Origin: a virus
Length of the DNA stretch: 64,000 nt
Reading direction: 5' to 3' (one strand)
Virus record (IMG/VR): IMGVR_UViG_3300011115_000716
Location: 26,053 to 90,052 of that record
Shown: one piece after another, positions 40,908-57,690 of the stretch
Layout: each line of letters opens with the position of its first letter
How positions within the stretch are numbered: position 1 is the stretch's first letter
Translations under genes and position numbers: made by a program
The notes under the pieces: generated by a model
Seen by the model: only the letters and a program-made list of their open reading frames with translations
What the model was told of the DNA's origin: nothing
The model's database searches: none

Positions 40908-41353
40908 TGTCAGCCCTAGAAAAGTTTAAAGACTGGGGGCTTACCTTTTATAAACCAGAAGGTGAGCAAGTTCGTATTCCCACAGACATTACGGCCCTTG
41001 GTTCTGAGGATTTAGGTGAGTTGTTTACCCGTTTAACTGCTTGGACTGATTATATTGCTTCACAGTTAACTATGGCTCAGCTAGAGGAACGTGCCGCTCT
41101 TAAAAAGAAAGACTTTACTGAAACTACTATGCTAATTAAGCGTGTTGGTTCTCAGGCAAAGGGCGAACGCATTACAGCTATCAAAGCAGAGGTCTCTATT
41201 AACCCGGAGATTGTGCAACTTGACAACGATTATGAAGAGAAGTATGCTTATCGTAAGTTAGTTGAAATGCTACTTACAAACCACGAGCGTGACTTATCAC
41301 TAGTCAGCCGTGAAATTACACGCCGTTCTAACGACTATAGGAGAAACTTATAA
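40907..41353 (+). CDS. helical protein, possibly a UvsY-like recombination mediator
   Basis: long coiled helices ending 'SREITRR'; located beside RecA and the exonuclease. Confidence 0.4.
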   Translation: MSALEKFKDWGLTFYKPEGEQVRIPTDITALGSEDLGELFTRLTAWTDYIASQLTMAQLEERAALKKKDFTETTMLIKRVGSQAKGERITAIKAEVSINPEIVQLDNDYEEKYAYRKLVEMLLTNHERDLSLVSREITRRSNDYRRNL

Positions 41354-41745
41354 TGGGACAGATGAAAGAACTATACACAGATATCCACACCGAAGAAGCC
41401 GAGCTTGGTGAGATTAAAGACCTTCCAGATACTATTAAAGAGATGATTCGTAATGGAAATCCAAACGGAACATTTGAAGAAGCAATTCAACAGAAATTTC
41501 AACATGCAAAACACGTGCTGCTAACAAAGCACAAAGATTATGGGCCAAAGAACATCTCACAGAGCCCAGGAGGTCCTTTAAATGGCCTACGTGTTCGTAT
41601 GTGGGATAAGTTTGCTCGTATCAACCATTTGATTGACACGGGAGCTACACCAGAGAATGAAAGCCTAAAAGACTCTTTTCTAGATATGGCAAACTATGCT
41701 ATTATCGCAATGTTAGTTCTTGATGGAGAGTGGCCAGACAACTAA
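41353..41745 (+). CDS. nucleotide-modification-associated domain 1 (DUF1599/Nmad1-like)
   Basis: 'KHKDYG..NI...GL.VRM.DK..RI..L...ESL.DS..DMANYAII'. Confidence 0.8.
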   Translation: MGQMKELYTDIHTEEAELGEIKDLPDTIKEMIRNGNPNGTFEEAIQQKFQHAKHVLLTKHKDYGPKNISQSPGGPLNGLRVRMWDKFARINHLIDTGATPENESLKDSFLDMANYAIIAMLVLDGEWPDN

Positions 41746-51132: not shown

Positions 51133-51162
51133 TAAACCCCTTCCATTTGGGAGGGGTTTATA
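51133..51162 (+). terminator. stem-loop terminator
   Basis: TAAACCCCTTCC-ATTT-GGGAGGGGTTTA. Confidence 0.75.
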
Positions 51163-51188: not shown

Positions 51189-51743
51189 ATGCAAGAATTT
51201 AAACCAACAATCGGGTCAAAGCCTATCGATGGCCCAGTCATTCGTTTACTACGTTGTTTAGTATGTGAGTCATGGGAAGAGCTGCCAGATTTTGAAGGCC
51301 CATCCAATTTTGATTACCTATTAGAGATTTCACTAGAGAAGCATAAGTTTCCATCCGGTGAGCCACACGTAGGTAAACTGTTTAAGGTTCCGGTAAAGAC
51401 CTGGGTTAACCCAGAACAGAAGAAAGCCGTCCTTGACCAGTTAGCTCAGGGTGGTTCAAAAGGTCTAGATGAGTTAGACCCTAACAAAACATTTTATGAA
51501 ACCAAGATGACATTTGCTGATGAGGCAATGACATGTTGGATTGCTCATAATAAAGTCACAGCCAATTGTGACGATTATGAAACACCTAAGAAGCGTTTGC
51601 TACCAGACACAGCGGTAGAACGTAAAGAACTAGGTATGCCTAAGCCAGAACACCTGGAAGGTCCACAAGTCTACACTTGCCATTTCTGCCCGTACCATGG
51701 TAAAGTGTTAGAACGTAAACGCCAAATTCTTGGCCTATATTAA
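51189..51743 (+). CDS. Cys/His-containing hypothetical protein (probably two Zn sites)
   Basis: CLVC...H...H; C..H......C ... CHFCP. Confidence 0.7.
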   Translation: MQEFKPTIGSKPIDGPVIRLLRCLVCESWEELPDFEGPSNFDYLLEISLEKHKFPSGEPHVGKLFKVPVKTWVNPEQKKAVLDQLAQGGSKGLDELDPNKTFYETKMTFADEAMTCWIAHNKVTANCDDYETPKKRLLPDTAVERKELGMPKPEHLEGPQVYTCHFCPYHGKVLERKRQILGLY

Positions 51744-51757
51744 ATAAGGAAAATAAC

Positions 51758-52042
51758 ATGGAAAAGCAAGTAGATGTAGCATTCTTGGTACTAGCCCACA
51801 CTGATGGAACATTCGCAGTAAAGCTGGAAGACCTAACCACACCAGTAGAGGCAAACCGTATCGCTAACACAGGTGATGTGTTTGGTATTTCTCAGCAGAT
51901 TGTAAAAGAGATTGAACAGCAGTTGTTGGTCAGTCGCATTGTTGAGGCACTAAACCCACAGGTTCAGAGCGTACCAGAAGTCATTAAAGAAAAGTTAGCA
52001 GAACGCGGCATTCAGGCAGAAAGCACTGAGCCAACCGCATAA
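51758..52042 (+). CDS. hypothetical protein
   Basis: AAGGA SD. Confidence 0.7.
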   Translation: MEKQVDVAFLVLAHTDGTFAVKLEDLTTPVEANRIANTGDVFGISQQIVKEIEQQLLVSRIVEALNPQVQSVPEVIKEKLAERGIQAESTEPTA

Positions 52043-52051
52043 ACTAGGTGT

Positions 52052-52939
52052 ATGACTAACGCCACCTCGTATTTCAGCAAACCTGCAGATACCCTTGACC
52101 CAAAGCTATTCCAGGGAAGGGTCCTAAAAGCATCTATTCGTAATGGTATTACGTCACTTATCAAAGATTTTTTAGGTGAGAGTTACCGTCACAGTGAGAT
52201 GTGGGCCCATCCTTGGTTAGCAGGGTCAGGGGTTTCTTACCAATGGCAGGCAGCACGTGAGCCAGCAGATTTAGATTGTTTAATTGGCATTGATTTTATT
52301 AGATTTAAGAAGGCTAACCCAGAGTTCAGCGGCCTAACTAATAAAGAGATTAGTGACCAATTAAACGAAGAGTTTCACGATAACCTCCAGAAGAAAACAG
52401 AAAACTGGAATGGGTATGAGCTAACATTTTATGCGTTAGCAACCGATGATATTAAAAGCATAAGACCATACGCAGCATATGATTTGATGTATGACGAGTG
52501 GTCAGTTGTGCCAGACCCTAACGCAGCACCTCCAACAGTTCCGGAGTGGGACGCAGTTGCAGATACTGATACAAGTAAAACTAAGAATATTAGTACAAGA
52601 TTTGAGACAGCCTTACAAGATTTAAGGTGGGCAAGTGCGATGCCAGCACGGAGAAATGCTGAGGTTAGACTAGATAGCGCAGCAGCTCAGGGTGGCGCAT
52701 TATTTGACGAGATTCATAATAATAGAAGCCAAGCATTCTCAGACGTTGGCGAAGGCTATTCTGATTTCCACAATTACCGTTGGCAAGCAGGTAAGCGTAA
52801 TGGGACAGTTCAGCAATTAAAGTCAATAAAAAAGTATTTAATTGATAATAGCAGGACAGGTGCTAGAGCATCATACGGCGTAGAATTACCGGATGCAGAT
52901 ACGCTGATTCGTAGAGCAGCAATATATAGGATTAAATAG
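52052..52939 (+). CDS. pol-beta-superfamily nucleotidyltransferase
   Basis: 'LDPKLF', 'LAGS.VSY.W......DLD', 'YELTFY', 'AYDL..DEW'; TAAACT 6 nt before the ATG (leaderless). Confidence 0.8.
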   Translation: MTNATSYFSKPADTLDPKLFQGRVLKASIRNGITSLIKDFLGESYRHSEMWAHPWLAGSGVSYQWQAAREPADLDCLIGIDFIRFKKANPEFSGLTNKEISDQLNEEFHDNLQKKTENWNGYELTFYALATDDIKSIRPYAAYDLMYDEWSVVPDPNAAPPTVPEWDAVADTDTSKTKNISTRFETALQDLRWASAMPARRNAEVRLDSAAAQGGALFDEIHNNRSQAFSDVGEGYSDFHNYRWQAGKRNGTVQQLKSIKKYLIDNSRTGARASYGVELPDADTLIRRAAIYRIK

Positions 52940-53049
52940 TGTCATTAACAGATACGTGTCATTTATGCAGGCATGAACTATACGCAGGTATTTGCGTAGA
53001 AGACCAGTGTAAATGTGATTGTTATGGAGAAAATTACAAGGAAGACTGA
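52939..53049 (+). CDS. 36-aa zinc-finger-like peptide
   Basis: MSLTDTCHLCRHELYAGICVEDQCKCDCYGENYKED; overlaps both neighbouring stop/start codons; below the ORF-track cutoff. Confidence 0.6.
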   Translation: MSLTDTCHLCRHELYAGICVEDQCKCDCYGENYKED

Positions 53050-53537
53050 TGCATATAGTTGTTGAATTAGATGGTGTATTAAGAGGCCACAAACATGATG
53101 AGCCAATTCTCGCGGGAATCCAAATGGTGGGAGCCCTCAGCGCCTGGAATAAGATTACATTTATCACCGAGATGAATGCTGCCGAGGCTAACCAATGGGT
53201 TAATATCAATAAGATATTTGATTATGATAACCTCATCGACTCATCCATTGGGCTAGTTGACGAGGATTTGAAACAACGTCAGCTCAAGATGGCAAGAGCC
53301 AGTGGTTCAGTAGAAATGTTTATAACAGCAAACCCAAAGTTGTGGGCAATATCATTTGATTTGGGTATCCCGTCCCTATTGTTTGGTATCCCATCATATA
53401 CTCGCCCAGAGTTTCGCCCTGATGCACCTAGAAAGGTACGGGCCTGGAACGATATTGAGGCAGCCGTAAAAAAGCAAAACGAATTACGTACCAAGGATGC
53501 CCGGTTAACTCGCACAGAAGGCGTCAAATTCGAATGA
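53049..53537 (+). CDS. HAD-fold protein (degenerate motif I)
   Basis: 'IVVELDGVLR' (DxDGxL with the first D replaced by E), 'ITFIT', 'GIPSLLF'. Confidence 0.6.
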   Translation: MHIVVELDGVLRGHKHDEPILAGIQMVGALSAWNKITFITEMNAAEANQWVNINKIFDYDNLIDSSIGLVDEDLKQRQLKMARASGSVEMFITANPKLWAISFDLGIPSLLFGIPSYTRPEFRPDAPRKVRAWNDIEAAVKKQNELRTKDARLTRTEGVKFE

Positions 53538-55000
53538 TTATATTTAGTGGGGTGGAGATTCCCTCCAACAGAACCCTCCTGGAAAAAGCTGGTGTACAAA
53601 ACGTTATGCTGAGTTACTGGGGGTTGAGAAAGCGCGGGTTGCCAAAAACTAAGGCATACCTAATTGGCGAGCATTTCCTACCTAATATGAAAGTATGGGT
53701 AGATTCAGGAGCCATTCAAGCAGACAAAGCAAACCTGTCCAGGGAAGAGCTGGAAGAATACGCAGCAGATTATGAAGAGTTTATTGCGTTAAATTATGAC
53801 CGTATTGAAGGTTGGGTTGAGTTTGATTCACAGGTATTAGGATTACCGTGGGTAAATCAGCAGCGTGCAGCGTTCCAGAATGACCCTAAAATGTGGGTTG
53901 TATGGCACGAGGCGTACGGTATTCCTTTATTACAGGTATGGGGTCAACAATATAATAACGTGGCCATACCGGGCGATGTAATCGATTCTGTGACGTCCCT
54001 GGCGGCCATCGTGAGGAACCTAACAGCACATAACCCAGTGCAATTTCACGCATTAGCAACAGCAAAACCAGATAACCTACGTCAAATTCCGTTTGCAACA
54101 GCAAGCACACTATCGTGGATTTCGCCAATGAGACGCGGGGAGACCATTGTATGGGATTCTAATAAGTTGGTACGATACCCAAAACGGATGAAGGCCCAAG
54201 CCAGGCCGAGATACAAAATGGTGTTGGAGAAGGCAGGATTAGATTTTACAAAGTTCGTAGAAGACGATACTCTGGAAGCAACTAAAGTTGCAGTTTGGTC
54301 ATTTTTACAGTTAGAGAAGACAATGAATAATAACAAAAACAATAAAGTATCTGATAACAGTGATGACACCCTATACAGTGGTTTGATGGAATTAGGGGGG
54401 GTACCTTCTGATAACAGTGGTAGTGAAATGCGGAAAGTTGAACGCACAGAAGTAGTGCAAAGAGACCCACAAGAGATGCAATTGATGCCTGGATTAGGGT
54501 ATGAATTAAAGACCGTAATAGATAATATTGATGGTCGAGACGTACTGGTAGAAGTTCCGGTAGTTCAGTCAAATATGACAAGTTTAAGGCAGTGTAACAC
54601 CTGTTTCGTAGCCGCAAATTGCCCAGCGTTTAAGCCAGATAATTCGTGTGCGTATAACCTACCAATAGAGGTAAAAACTAAAGAACAGTTGAAGGGTTTA
54701 TTAACCGCAATTATCGAGATGCAGGGCCAGAGAGTAGCATTCATGCGGATGGCAGAAGAATTGAACGGTGGATACGCAGACCCAAATATGTCACAAGAGA
54801 TGGACCGTTTGATGAAGTTAGTGAAGACCGTAAAGGATATGGAAACTAATAAAGAGTTCATTCAAATCACCGCAAGCAGAAGCTCAGAAGGCGGAGTATT
54901 ATCACAGTTGTTTGGGCCAAAAGCAGGCAACATGAACAGTAATCAACCGTTGTATTCAGAAGAGCAAACAACGATGATTATTAAAGATTCCATAGAATAG
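53534..55000 (+). CDS. TGT/DpdA-like TIM-barrel protein fused to a Cys-cluster and helical C-terminal domain
   Basis: 'LSY', 'VDSGA', 'Y..FI', 'EFD', 'VWH', 'VAIPG', 'FHAL', 'PF...S..SW'; C-terminal CNTC.....C.......C. Confidence 0.7.
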   Translation: MIIFSGVEIPSNRTLLEKAGVQNVMLSYWGLRKRGLPKTKAYLIGEHFLPNMKVWVDSGAIQADKANLSREELEEYAADYEEFIALNYDRIEGWVEFDSQVLGLPWVNQQRAAFQNDPKMWVVWHEAYGIPLLQVWGQQYNNVAIPGDVIDSVTSLAAIVRNLTAHNPVQFHALATAKPDNLRQIPFATASTLSWISPMRRGETIVWDSNKLVRYPKRMKAQARPRYKMVLEKAGLDFTKFVEDDTLEATKVAVWSFLQLEKTMNNNKNNKVSDNSDDTLYSGLMELGGVPSDNSGSEMRKVERTEVVQRDPQEMQLMPGLGYELKTVIDNIDGRDVLVEVPVVQSNMTSLRQCNTCFVAANCPAFKPDNSCAYNLPIEVKTKEQLKGLLTAIIEMQGQRVAFMRMAEELNGGYADPNMSQEMDRLMKLVKTVKDMETNKEFIQITASRSSEGGVLSQLFGPKAGNMNSNQPLYSEEQTTMIIKDSIE

Positions 55001-55015
55001 TTATATCTGATAACA
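54348..55015 (+). repeat. dispersed direct repeats TCTGATAACA(GTG)
   Basis: TCTGATAACAGTG at 54350 and 54407; TATCTGATAACA at 54348 and 55004. Confidence 0.85.
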
Positions 55016-55053
55016 TCATCCACTGATATATGAATCAGGGTGGACCAGGGTAT

Positions 55054-55083
55054 TTGACAAAGTTAGTAGAAGGGTATTAGAGT
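55054..55083 (+). promoter_or_regulatory. SigA-type promoter for the RNR gene, with an inverted repeat over the -10
   Basis: TTGACA-18 nt-TAGAGT; GGTATTA-gag-TAATACC. Confidence 0.65.
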
Positions 55084-55128
55084 AATACCTGAGATACTAG
55101 TTATCCAATAAAAAACATAGGAAGTAAT

Positions 55129-57171
55129 ATGATAAATTTTTCATTTAAATTAGCAGATGAGTTCGTAGCGGGGTATAAAAACAAAAAAGCACCATTTGGT
55201 TACGCAGACGTTGCCGGGAATTCAGTAGGAGAAATTACATTCCTACGTACATATAGTCGTTTGAAAGAAGATGGCACCAAGGAAACCTGGGCGGATGTTT
55301 GCGAGCGTGTTATTAACGGTATGTATTCATTACAGAAAGACCACGCAAAGCAGAACCGTTTGCCATGGAGCGACGCAAAAGCTGCGGCGTCAGCCAAAGA
55401 AGCGTATGACCGTTTATTTAATTTAAAGTGGACACCGCCAGGGCGTGGGTTGTGGGTAATGGGTACTGATATTGTAAATGAGCAGAAGAATTCAGCAGCG
55501 TTGCAGAATTGCGCGTTCGTTAGTACCAACGAGATGACCAAGAACAATCCGTCAAAGCCATTTGGATTCCTGATGGAAGCCTCAATGTTGGGCGTAGGCG
55601 TAGGGTTTGATGATAAAGGCGCTGATAAAGGGTTTGATATATATGAGCCAGGAGCAGTTCAGGAGTATTTGATTCCAGATACCCGCGAAGGCTGGGCAGA
55701 ATCTACAATGGCGTTGATTAATTCATATCTAAAGGTAGACCAGCCAAAATATGAGTTTAATTATGATGATATTAGACCATATGGAGCAGTTATTAAGACG
55801 TTTGGAGGAACAGCGTCAGGCCCGGAACCGTTGGTTAAGTTGCATGAGAACATTAAAAAGATGTTTGATGGCCGTAAAGGCGATAAATTAACACGCGTTG
55901 ATATTGCTGATATCGGTAATATGATTGGTGTTTGTGTGGTTTCCGGGAATGTTCGCCGTTCAGCTGAGCTGTTAATTGGGCGTATTGATGATGAGGATTT
56001 CCTGAACCTAAAGAATGCAGACAAATTCCCTGGGCGTAATTCATATGACCCTGAGAATCCAGGCTGGGCATGGATGAGTAATAACTCTGTAGATGTTTGT
56101 GTTGGGACGGATTTTGGACCTATTGTTGATGGGATTGTACGCAACGGAGAACCCGGCGTTATATGGATGGACGTAAGCCGTAAATACGGACGTCTTGTTG
56201 ATGCGCCTAATAATAAAGATAGGCGTGTAGTGGGCTACAACCCTTGTGCAGAGCAGAGCCTTGAAAGTTTTGAGATGTGTACTCTAGTAGAAACTTACTT
56301 GAATCGCCACGAATCCCTTGAGGACTTCAAGCGTACATTAAAGTTTGCTTATTTATATGCAAAGACTGTGACACTACTCCCAACACATTGGGAGGAGACC
56401 AATGCCATTATGCAGCGGAATCGTCGCATTGGTACGTCTGTCTCTGGTGTGGCTAACTTTGCTGATAACAAGGGTATGCAAACCCTACGTGAGTGGATGG
56501 ATGAAGGCTACAAGACTGTACGCGACTACGACATCTCTTACTCAGAGTGGCTAGGTATTCGCGAGTCTATTAAGATGACTACTGTAAAGCCGTCAGGCAC
56601 TGTGTCTATTTTGGCTGGAGAATCTCCAGGTGTTCACTGGCCTAGTGGTGGTAAGCATTTTTTACGTGCTATTCGTTTTGGAAACAACGACCCTATGTTG
56701 CCGTTGTTTAAGATGGCTAACTATCGTATAGAGCCAGCTAGCGAATCACCAGAGACTACGTCTGTTGTGTTCTTCCCTATTAAGACTGACGCTAAGCGCA
56801 GTGAAAAGGAAGTGTCTATCTACGAAAAGGTTAACCTAGCTGTGACTGCTCAACGCTGGTGGTCAGACAACTCTGTGTCTGTAACAGTAACCTTTGATGC
56901 TGAAAAAGAAAAGAATGATGTTGGCACCGTACTACATATGTACGATGGTCAGCTAAAGACTGTAAGCTTCCTCCCTATGGGTAACCATGTGTACCCACAG
57001 ATGCCATATACTCAGATAACTGAGGAGGAGTACGACCAGTATGCGTTGCAACTATTTGCAATTGACTTTGCTGGGGTGTATGCTGGTATGGCAGCAGATG
57101 CTGTTGGTGAGGCTTATTGCACCACCGATGCATGTGAAGTAAAACTAATAACAGAAAACAATAAGGAGTAA
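55129..57171 (+). CDS. nrdJ: class II (AdoCbl-dependent) monomeric ribonucleoside-triphosphate reductase
   Basis: 'RTYSR', 'PPGRGLW', 'NCAF', 'GNVRRSA', 'NPCAEQ', 'TVKPSGT', C-terminal CxxxxC. Confidence 0.95.
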   Translation: MINFSFKLADEFVAGYKNKKAPFGYADVAGNSVGEITFLRTYSRLKEDGTKETWADVCERVINGMYSLQKDHAKQNRLPWSDAKAAASAKEAYDRLFNLKWTPPGRGLWVMGTDIVNEQKNSAALQNCAFVSTNEMTKNNPSKPFGFLMEASMLGVGVGFDDKGADKGFDIYEPGAVQEYLIPDTREGWAESTMALINSYLKVDQPKYEFNYDDIRPYGAVIKTFGGTASGPEPLVKLHENIKKMFDGRKGDKLTRVDIADIGNMIGVCVVSGNVRRSAELLIGRIDDEDFLNLKNADKFPGRNSYDPENPGWAWMSNNSVDVCVGTDFGPIVDGIVRNGEPGVIWMDVSRKYGRLVDAPNNKDRRVVGYNPCAEQSLESFEMCTLVETYLNRHESLEDFKRTLKFAYLYAKTVTLLPTHWEETNAIMQRNRRIGTSVSGVANFADNKGMQTLREWMDEGYKTVRDYDISYSEWLGIRESIKMTTVKPSGTVSILAGESPGVHWPSGGKHFLRAIRFGNNDPMLPLFKMANYRIEPASESPETTSVVFFPIKTDAKRSEKEVSIYEKVNLAVTAQRWWSDNSVSVTVTFDAEKEKNDVGTVLHMYDGQLKTVSFLPMGNHVYPQMPYTQITEEEYDQYALQLFAIDFAGVYAGMAADAVGEAYCTTDACEVKLITENNKE

Positions 57172-57349: not shown

Positions 57350-57392
57350 AATAAGGCCCCCCGCATATAATGGCAGGGGGCCTTATTTATTT
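57350..57392. terminator. bidirectional terminator between the convergent genome arms
   Basis: AATAAGGCCCCC.GC-loop-GC.GGGGGCCTTATT with A/T-rich flanks. Confidence 0.85.
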
Positions 57393-57423: not shown

Positions 57424-57690
57424 TTACTTGCTAGTTACTTGAATAACTAACTCTTTTTTAGCCCTAGGATTATTCTTAACCCTAACGCGTTCAGCCATCG
57501 TAGTGCCTCCCCAAACACCGAACTCATCGTTCTTAAAAGCGTATGTTAAACACTGCATAACTACTGGGCATATACCGCAATAGCTTTTAGCTTCAGCAAC
57601 TTTATCTATTTCTTTTGCATCAGCAAAGAATATCTCTGGGTTAGCAGTTTTACACGCTGCTTGGTCCATATCAATATCATCTATTTCCAT
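57424..57690 (-). CDS. whiB: WhiB-family transcription regulator (second copy)
   Basis: 'AAC....PEIFF...AK.YC..CPV...CL.YA.....GVWGG'. Confidence 0.92.
   Translation of the reverse strand: MEIDDIDMDQAACKTANPEIFFADAKEIDKVAEAKSYCGICPVVMQCLTYAFKNDEFGVWGGTTMAERVRVKNNPRAKKELVIQVTSK

Follow-up and report, generated by a model that had tools for sequence, protein, structure and literature searches.

DpdA, a protein of tRNA-guanine transglycosylase (TGT) fold, inserts 7-deazaguanine bases into phage DNA. A review treats it as a signature of 7-deazaguanine DNA (PMC10516641). For the bacterial enzyme, a structural report assigns Asp95 as the general acid/base, Asp130 and His181 as readers of the base and Asp256 as the nucleophile, describes a structural Zn site, and states that D95A or D256A abolishes base exchange (PMC10164549). 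Here, we describe a phage relative of this family, the protein g4, encoded by the last gene of a four-gene cassette (positions 52052-55000, + strand) in a stretch of viral DNA of 64,000 nucleotides, hereafter the window, which represents bases 26053-90052 of the 90,052-bp IMG/VR record IMGVR_UViG_3300011115_000716. As judged from alignments, the whole g4 lineage has lost the nucleophilic aspartate, through which DpdA forms its covalent intermediate with DNA. The cassette itself is a conserved, translationally coupled unit of actinophages, usually accompanied by a further gene, up184.

Several described proteins are close enough to g4 for comparison. Gp021 of Bacillus phage BCD7, a long-form DpdA of 757 aa belonging to phrog_887, shares its two-domain build, with 25% identity in the barrel and 29% in the tail, and both contain the DSG, ELD, HG and G-E motifs together with the CX2CX5C...C cluster. 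Unlike g4, gp021 keeps the Asp (GDSTTW) and carries about 240 extra residues between the domains, and no homologue of g1, g3 or up184 was found in the 14-kb BCD7 locus. Bacteroides phage BS162P1 encodes the same barrel and tail as g4, but as two genes (00087 and 00088), with the Asp kept (SVDSVTW) and a QueC-like gene immediately upstream. The DpdA proteins of phages 9g and Iggy, which we take to represent subfamily DpdA1, have the barrel motifs in the same order as g4; they differ from it in their length of 312-317 aa, in the absence of a Cys4 tail, in the retained Asp (CDSSSW) and in their position beside FolE/QueD/QueC/QueE. Bacterial DpdA (Salmonella Montevideo, PDB 7UI4) belongs to the same TGT-fold family but has no direct sequence match to g4; it requires DpdB and ATP, whereas g4 is without an equivalent of Asp256.

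Two further systems join a TGT-fold protein to a partner. According to one report, QTRT2 is the non-catalytic partner of eukaryotic TGT and aids substrate binding, and in the type IV cyclic-oligonucleotide-based antiphage signaling system (CBASS) the TGT-fold protein Cap10 forms a complex with CdnD, a nucleotidyltransferase of the pol-beta fold (10.1101/2025.04.06.647259). QTRT2 pairs with an active TGT subunit, whereas no active TGT or DpdA was found in this phage genome. Cap10 keeps its catalytic Asp248, needs the QueC-like Cap9 and acts with a cGAS/DncV-like nucleotidyltransferase (CD-NTase) whose N terminus is Gly-rich; the module analyzed here is without all three, since there is no QueC, position 191 of g4 is not Asp and g1 starts with MTNATSYFS. 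The cassette comprises the following features.

52052..52939, + strand: g1, 295-aa pol-beta-type nucleotidyltransferase-like protein (G58 S59, D73, D75, E123)
52939..53049, + strand: g2, 36-aa Cys/His-rich peptide (CxxCxH...C...CxCxC) with a GTG start
53049..53537, + strand: g3, 162-aa protein, haloacid dehalogenase (HAD)-like by motif order (I ELDGV, II T40, III R77, IV TANP)
53534..54319, + strand: g4 residues 1-262, DpdA/TGT-family barrel (D57-S58-G59, E96-F97-D98, H172, Ser191)
54320..54568, + strand: g4 residues 263-345, low-complexity linker with weak column conservation
54569..55000, + strand: g4 residues 346-488, C-terminal domain (C354, C357, C363, C372, spaced CX2CX5CX8C, then conserved helical motifs)

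Kinship of g4 with DpdA and predicted loss of the nucleophile

A preliminary description of this DNA, made by reading the letters, had called the gene TGT/DpdA-like, and the homology was borne out. As a single sequence, g4 matched phrog_887 alone ('queuine tRNA-ribosyltransferase') over its full length, with E 7.9e-61. An exhaustive search at E <= 0.001 returned 855 clusters of homologues at 50% identity, Asp-bearing relatives included, and 1579 clusters at 90% identity were found among the 8000 candidates scored. From these a family alignment (A1) of the window's g4 and 103 of 150 listed representatives was compiled, 47 short, very long or multi-stretch matches being omitted; A2 is a 90-row subset of it. 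Over the whole record of Enterobacteria phage 9g, the A1 profile gave a single match, inside the DpdA gene gp03 (E 1.2e-10, 34.9 bits), which adjoins FolE, QueD and QueE. BCD7 gp021 matched both halves of g4 (barrel E 4e-18, tail E 3e-16) as well as proteins annotated as DpdA in Pseudomonas phage Iggy, Pantoea phage Vid5 and 9g-like coliphages. In the alignment, the motif order DSG, (E)LD, HG and then D-S-x-x-W is common to g4, 9g, Iggy, phiFN37, BS162P1 and BCD7. By these comparisons, g4 is a true relative of the DpdA family and a two-domain descendant of phage DpdA, and we regard the identity claims made for the module as firm.

The Pfam families TGT, DpdA and DUF6610 matched neither g4 nor anything else in the whole 90,052-bp genome, and a Pfam scan of 90 g4 family members returned no meaningful family. 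Since the DpdA proteins of 9g and Iggy themselves have no Pfam match, this blank is uninformative. Against PDB, the A1 profile retrieved nothing at E <= 10 except ribosomal protein S6, and the search of PDB sequences with g4 alone gave chance matches only.

What did not carry over from the preliminary description is the established DpdA activity, which cannot simply be transferred to g4 because the Asp nucleophile is lost. At the nucleophile column, 9g, Iggy, phiFN37, BS162P1 and BCD7 have Asp, and the window's g4 has Ser191 (54104-54106, in ATASTLSW). Across the 104 sequences of A1 the column holds Ser (47), Ala (15), Thr (14), Gly (14), Met (4), Tyr (3) and His (3), besides Asp, Asn, Ile and Leu once each; the sole Asp belongs to the representative P0133. 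Three homologues from Streptomyces phages have Ala or Ser. In a FastTree phylogeny of the barrel (111 sequences, rooted on 9g and Iggy), the five Asp-bearing proteins fall outside a single clade of 106, within which P0133, its only Asp carrier, is nested deeply.

The remaining pocket is retained to differing degrees. Residues were mapped to the numbering of bacterial DpdA by motif order via 9g and Iggy, not by structural alignment. Asp57, the predicted equivalent of the general acid/base in the DSG motif, is present in the window and kept in 69/104 sequences, and the putative base-reading residues Asp98 and His172, whose counterparts in the DpdA1 alignment are the LD and HG motifs, are kept in 87 and 86 of the 104, respectively. 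A G202-E203-T204 motif is specific to the clade, with Gly at 202 and Glu or Asp at 203 in 100/104 each. E8 is conserved in 98/104, and W195, P319, C354, C357, C363 and C372 are invariant. Conservation of this kind suggests that g4 is under continued constraint and probably functional despite the lost nucleophile.

C-terminal domain and intein-like insertions

The commonest residue of a column accounts on average for 0.52 of the sequences in the C-terminal domain, compared with 0.46 in the barrel and 0.29 in the linker. Columns conserved to at least 90% number 15 in the tail and 11 in the barrel, the tail being half the barrel's length, and the four tail cysteines show no exception among the 104 sequences. 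With the tail domain as a query, tblastn recovered long-form DpdA homologues only, in 10 records. A search for shorter proteins yielded at least 120 close fragments, all from short contigs. The Cys4 set lies in a separate C-terminal domain, and its CX2CX5C spacing would fit an Fe-S cluster as well as Zn. A weak MutY-family match covers g4 residues 352-428 (E 0.12), and two tail fragments were named 'adenine-specific DNA glycosylase' by the Joint Genome Institute (JGI). Spacing, MutY match and JGI name together offer a lead that the tail might be an Fe-S cluster domain.

Inspection by eye revealed intein-like insertions of about 320-370 residues in four long g4 homologues (P0147, P0205, P0206 and P0207). 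They begin with Cys or Ser, contain a TxxH block and LAGLIDADG-type motifs, and terminate in HN or GN, the next residue being Cys or Thr. In P0206 the insertion site is equivalent to the bond between E203 and T204, in P0205 and P0207 to that between T356 and C357, and in P0147 to that between S371 and C372. Inteins tend to occupy functionally critical sites, and the insertions therefore indicate that both the Cys cluster and the G-[E/D]-T motif are important.

Two other homologues, P0124 and P0131, carry N-terminal extensions of 84 and 113 residues with an HNH-type motif, which are either real fusions or merged gene calls. Exact copies of TCTGATAACA were seen at 54350, 54407 and 55006, two of them in the g4 linker, where they read SDN in frame, and one just past the stop codon. 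Enrichment of this word as 'iterons' was ruled out: 8 matches with at most one mismatch compare with 5.2 +/- 2.2 in shuffled sequences.

Base supply for 7-deazaguanine

The preliminary description had noted no folE/queCDE genes in the window, and this absence of preQ0 synthesis genes extends to the complete genome: QueC, QueD and FolE were not found in any part of the 90,052 bp. QueC and QueD were likewise present in 0/15 other genomes with an Asp-less g4, namely the Streptomyces phage GiJojo and 14 IMG/VR records, of which 12 have a completeness of at least 90%. Both were present in 2/2 phages with an Asp-bearing homologue, BCD7 and BS162P1. In BCD7, gp021 directly follows FolE, QueC, QueE and QueD. 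In BS162P1, gene 00086 (L045:5214-5942), annotated as hypothetical, matches QueC (PF06508, E 4.6e-14) and lies directly 5' of the split DpdA barrel and tail genes, and QueD is located elsewhere in the genome. In phiFN37, a gene for a queuosine-precursor transporter is found near the DpdA homologue.

Without the Asp and without a base supply, canonical covalent guanine exchange by g4 is predicted to be very unlikely, and the lost Asp together with the missing preQ0 genes supports the earlier proposal that this is not the canonical 7-deazaguanine route. The broader proposal of a nucleotide or base-modification pathway of some kind found no support in the analysis. These results bear on annotation. 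Databases and annotators label g4-type proteins 'queuine tRNA-ribosyltransferase' or 'DpdA-like'. Since one of 104 family members has the Asp and no examined Asp-less phage has the pathway, predicting modified DNA from the gene name would mislead for lake and Streptomyces phages, a widespread group, and the large Asp-less lineage would break the rule that equates DpdA with 7-deazaguanine DNA.

Products of g1, g2 and g3

Nucleotidyltransferases of the pol-beta fold are recognized by an hG[GS] motif followed by [DE]x[DE] and then by a third carboxylate. The full GS...DxD...E set is present in g1, in keeping with the earlier reading that a pol-beta-type nucleotidyltransferase leads the cassette, and its residues (G58-S59, D73-L74-D75 and E123) are invariant in 29/29 aligned homologues and also kept in three homologues from Streptomyces phages. 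Further invariant blocks are found at the N terminus (Y-F-S-x-P...L-D-P-x-L-F) and at the C terminus (H...R...AF...G-x-G-Y-x-D-F-x-N-x-R-W-Q). GiJojo gp178 is 36% identical to g1 (E 2e-59). Protein-atlas neighbors of g1 at 0.97 were viral clusters named nucleotidyltransferase, with PF01909 assigned to 12% of the members of one cluster. In Pfam, the g1 family matched weakly to DUF6932 alone (6/29 members, best E 0.014), NCBIfam gave nothing above noise for the cassette proteins, and neither g1 as a single sequence nor its family profile retrieved anything relevant from PDB. Judged by motifs, no cassette member other than g1 has a complete catalytic set; that of g1 is of the pol-beta nucleotidyltransferase type. 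Two candidates were set aside as unrelated to g1, BCD7 gp015, annotated as 'nucleotidyltransferase' (E 0.22), and GiJojo gp180.

The g2 peptide was detected by tblastn, with its Cys/His pattern conserved, in 17 of 34 IMG/VR loci that had been fetched with a g1 query (48-94% identity), so that presence counts for this set are conditional on g1. It was not found in the Streptomyces phages. In the locus L022 (6885-7478), g2 and g3 form one in-frame open reading frame (ORF).

HAD proteins have motif I as DxDx[TV] with an Asp nucleophile, and their motif IV is acidic and forms the Mg site. In g3 neither is seen: motif I reads ELDGV, and motif IV, T93-A94-N95-P96 in the window and T-[NSA]-[NDS]-P in the family, is without the usual acids. 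Among 145 distinct homologues, motif I is ExD in 67, DxD in 46, DxN in 10, ExE in 7, DxE in 7 and SxD in 3, and its first residue is Glu in 75 and Asp in 64. The Glu is thus one state of a family-wide D/E toggle. Streptomyces phage homologues read VVDG or VVEG at this position and were labeled 'phosphatase' or 'hydrolase' by their annotators. T93 is kept in 141/145, position 95 is Asn in 107, Asp in 22 and Ser in 16, and R77 and Q78 are invariant. No HAD family in Pfam matched any of 26 g3 members at E <= 1, the g3 profile retrieved nothing from PDB, the single-sequence search of PDB sequences gave chance matches only, and NT5C had no match in the phage's own genome or in five related records. 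The preliminary description, which had termed g3 a degenerate HAD protein, was correct in reading ELDGVL; its HAD label follows motif order and is not joined by a profile match. We use 'HAD' for g3 as a motif-level reading, with a metal site that appears eroded.

Conservation and organization of the cassette

The stop/start overlaps by which the genes had been described as coupled were confirmed at all three junctions by direct reading and measure 1, 1 and 4 nt. At the g1/g2 junction (TAGTG), the G of the g1 stop codon TAG (52937-52939) is the first base of the g2 GTG at 52939; at the g2/g3 junction (TGATG), the A of the g2 stop codon TGA (53047-53049) is the first base of the g3 ATG at 53049; and the g3 stop and g4 start overlap as ATGA (53534-53537). 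The alignment places the conserved g3 start at this ATG (162 aa, MHIVVELDGVL) rather than at TTG 53019, which a mechanical ORF list had given. Upstream of g1 lie the following features.

51189..51743, + strand: up184, 184-aa Cys-rich (CxxC...CxxC) protein that travels with the cassette
51758..52042, + strand: up94, 94-aa ORF, its stop codon being the start of the -10-like box
52042-52047, + strand: -10-like hexamer TAAACT, six bases 5' of the g1 ATG, in leaderless-promoter geometry

In the 34 g1-selected loci, up184 was found in 34, g3 in 33 (30 by tblastn and 3 by hidden Markov model [HMM]) and g4 in 33; the single locus missing from the latter counts is cut 33 nt after g1. This neighborhood survey bears out that the cassette genes are co-conserved. 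By tblastn, the up184 homologue lies 5' of g1 in all 34 loci and corresponds to GiJojo gp175, and up94 is present in 26/34, at 27-97% identity; neither up184 nor up94 matched a Pfam or PHROG family. Among 50,697 phage records, up184, g1, g3 and an Asp-less g4 occur in an identical set of six records, which represent five Streptomyces phages (BRock, GiJojo, Alone3, LuckySocke and pSt2308); a blastn search of the cassette against the same records gave no match. These cultured carriers make the function of the block directly testable. The order g1-g3-g4 is constant from lake phages to Streptomyces phages, with proteins 23-36% identical; in the latter the full order is up184, a small ORF, an endolysin gene, g1, g3, one variable extra gene and g4. 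The locus L043, reached via a distant g4, has up184-g1-g3-g4. No paper on the Asp-less DpdA lineage or on this gene block was found in a literature search that did not extend to subscription journals and supplementary tables.

The -10 box at leaderless distance that had been reported before g1, a putative promoter, is present, and its arrangement is kept. TANNNT-N5-7-ATG precedes g1 in 27/30 distinct relatives, against a background of 69/1184 + strand ATGs (5.8%) and 5/54 ORF starts in the window; at its 5' end, the TAAACT box doubles as the up94 stop codon. A two-hexamer sigma-70 scan gave no match at TAAACT and no excess of promoter-like sites (15 versus 14.7 +/- 4.6 in shuffled sequences).

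Possible functions of the module

Our best guess for the mechanism is that the four cassette products act together in a complex, with a probability of about 0.4. The DpdA-derived g4 would recognize DNA or a purine: no longer exchanging guanine, it would have become a DNA-binding subunit that probably also holds a flipped or free purine. The chemistry would fall to g1, which might transfer a nucleotidyl group to the target presented by g4, be it a bound small molecule or, in DNA, a base, a sugar or an end, and g3, with its eroded metal site, and g2, a Cys/His knuckle, would serve as adaptors. Such a complex would produce a DNA mark, or carry out a DNA-processing step, other than 7-deazaguanine. 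We favor joint action because of the translational coupling, the g2-g3 fusion and the co-occurrence of the genes across lake and Streptomyces phages, and a partnership of g4 with g1 because Cap10-CdnD and QTRT2 provide precedents. As the block is strictly conserved and hosts intein-like insertions, it should have an important function.

Several observations weigh against such a complex. Asp57 is replaced by His, Tyr or Glu in the clusters nearest to the window's g4, and its retention in no more than 69 of the 104 sequences implies that the pocket is eroding in part of the family. No curated nucleotidyltransferase family in Pfam, NCBIfam, PADLOC or PDB matched g1 above threshold. In the Streptomyces phages the block is split by the extra gene between g3 and g4 and by the endolysin gene between up184 and g1, and it stands beside cell wall hydrolase and lysis genes, not replication genes. 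Of the loci reached via distant g4 homologues, L042 has up184-g3-g4 without g1, and in L041, whose g4 is 29% identical, neither g1 nor g3 was detected in the available 2.3 kb upstream.

It is tempting to speculate that the DpdA barrel was rebuilt for a new chemistry, in which the acid of G-[E/D]-T, the metal-cluster domain and g1 would together place a non-7-deazaguanine mark, such as a nucleotidylated base or sugar, on the phage DNA. We consider this unlikely; if it were true, such a mark would be common in lake and soil actinophages. Equally doubtful in our view is that g4 is a purely non-catalytic binder of DNA or purine, acting as a regulator, genome organizer or DNA recognition factor, with neighbors that are co-regulated and have other targets. 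The missing nucleophile and the incomplete conservation of the general-acid Asp57 would agree with this, as would the Cys4 tail, which is the best conserved part of the protein and a separate gene in BS162P1, but the G-[E/D]-T motif, with an intein-like insertion at that very bond, resembles an active or ligand site rather than a scaffold, and both the g2-g3 fusion and the tight coupling favor products that act jointly. Somewhat less probable still is that g4 remains a base-exchange or excision enzyme that uses another acid ([E/D]203, E8 or E96) and a substrate made by the host. The near-complete conservation of an acid at 203 (100/104) and of E8 (98/104) speaks for it, and since Glu is already present at position 203 in BCD7 alongside the retained Asp, a take-over is conceivable; the intein-like insertion between E203 and T204 points the same way. 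In bacterial DpdA, according to the structural report, Phe265 lies nine residues past the nucleophile and near the modification site (PMC10164549), and a Y/F/R-G-[E/D] motif follows position 191 of g4 by 10-12 residues. Against it, FolE, QueC and QueD were not found, transporter and other salvage genes not being part of the search, and Asp57 itself is replaced in a third of the family.

The preliminary description had also raised an anti-defense signaling module, for which we found no support. In its most concrete form, g4 would be a dead TGT-fold decoy that sequesters 7-deazaguanine bases or a deazaguanylated host protein of type IV CBASS, or blocks Dpd-type restriction, and g1 would modify or mimic the host nucleotidyltransferase. 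According to the Cap10 report, Cap10 acts on its partner nucleotidyltransferase and reads 7-deazaguanine with D73, S74 and D122, to which D57/S58 and D98 of g4 correspond (10.1101/2025.04.06.647259); GiJojo carries an ArdA-like antirestriction gene 3 kb downstream of the block. Even so, we hold a decoy to be improbable. PADLOC gave no match for g1, g3 or g4 at E <= 1 and a single weak one, to DrmC, in up94 (E 0.014, 12.7 bits); the N terminus of g1 lacks the M(G/S)G(G/S)GG seen in type IV CD-NTases; the protein nearest to g4 is phage DpdA rather than Cap10; and such strict conservation, with inteins, throughout a very large group of phages is more readily explained by a core function than by a counter-defense accessory. 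We give as little credence to four functionally unrelated genes that are merely packed together. Overlaps are commonplace in phages, the block contains insertions in the Streptomyces phages and in the loci L014 and L021, and association is loose for g2 (17/34 loci) and for the reductase gene that follows g4 in 21/34. On the other side stand the g1-g3-g4 order, kept at 23-36% identity, the identical distribution of up184, g1, g3 and g4 in the 50,697 records, and the g2-g3 fusion in L022.

Genomic surroundings and sequence composition

The record has direct terminal repeats, and CheckV estimates it as 100% complete. PHROG matches identify a virion module of myovirus type (tail sheath, baseplate) and, after it, a replication module with helicase, family A DNA polymerase, UvsX/RecA-like recombinase, Cas4-like exonuclease and RuvC. 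The cassette is positioned at the end of the replication block, directly 5' of a class II ribonucleotide reductase gene, and about 29 kb from TerL (G000:C1:20211-20891) on the circular map. The following features were recorded around it.

41353-41742: Nmad1 (PF07659/DUF1599), E 4.5e-7, 30.6 bits against a cut-off of 25
51138-51156: terminator-like hairpin, 5' of up184
55129..57171, + strand: class II (B12-type) ribonucleotide reductase (Pfam RNR_Alpha E 3.3e-30, RNR-II_ins_dom E 1.5e-13)
57350-57387: GC-rich hairpin of 15 pairs with T runs, after the reductase gene and between converging + and - gene blocks

Nmad1, which the preliminary description had placed at 41353, was verified by the PF07659 match; its ORF sits 10 kb upstream of the cassette, flanked by the genes for the Cas4-like exonuclease and the RuvC-like resolvase. 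The ribonucleotide reductase is a neighbor that stands outside the module: its gene lies 3' of g4 in the 21 of 34 IMG/VR loci mentioned above and away from the cassette in the Streptomyces phages. The hairpin at 57350-57387 is likely a bidirectional terminator. An 88-aa ORF on the minus strand (57424-57690) shows, by eye, a WhiB-like Cys pattern and a GVWGG motif, and since the nearest cultured relatives are Streptomyces phages, the two together point to an actinobacterial host. A lake-water metagenome other than the likely source sample contains 0.49 of the stretch's sampled words.

The region 52240-56190 (+ strand) is poor in CTT trinucleotides, with 3 in 3,951 nt where 42 would be expected from base composition and 70 from the other + strand genes; TCT, ACT and GCT are likewise low. 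It contains the two longest CTT-free gaps of the 90-kb genome, 1,789 nt (54405-56194) and 1,313 nt (52612-53925); the third-longest measures 493 nt, and 2,000 random placements gave gaps of up to 761 nt. In the loci L004, L005, L008, L009, L010, L011 and L016, the homologous region is CTT-poor as well, with 0.5-2.9 per kb versus 9.6-13.4 upstream; in L007, L014, L018, L021 and others it is not. Codon usage, an RNA-level constraint and a DNA-level constraint are candidate causes of this scarcity.

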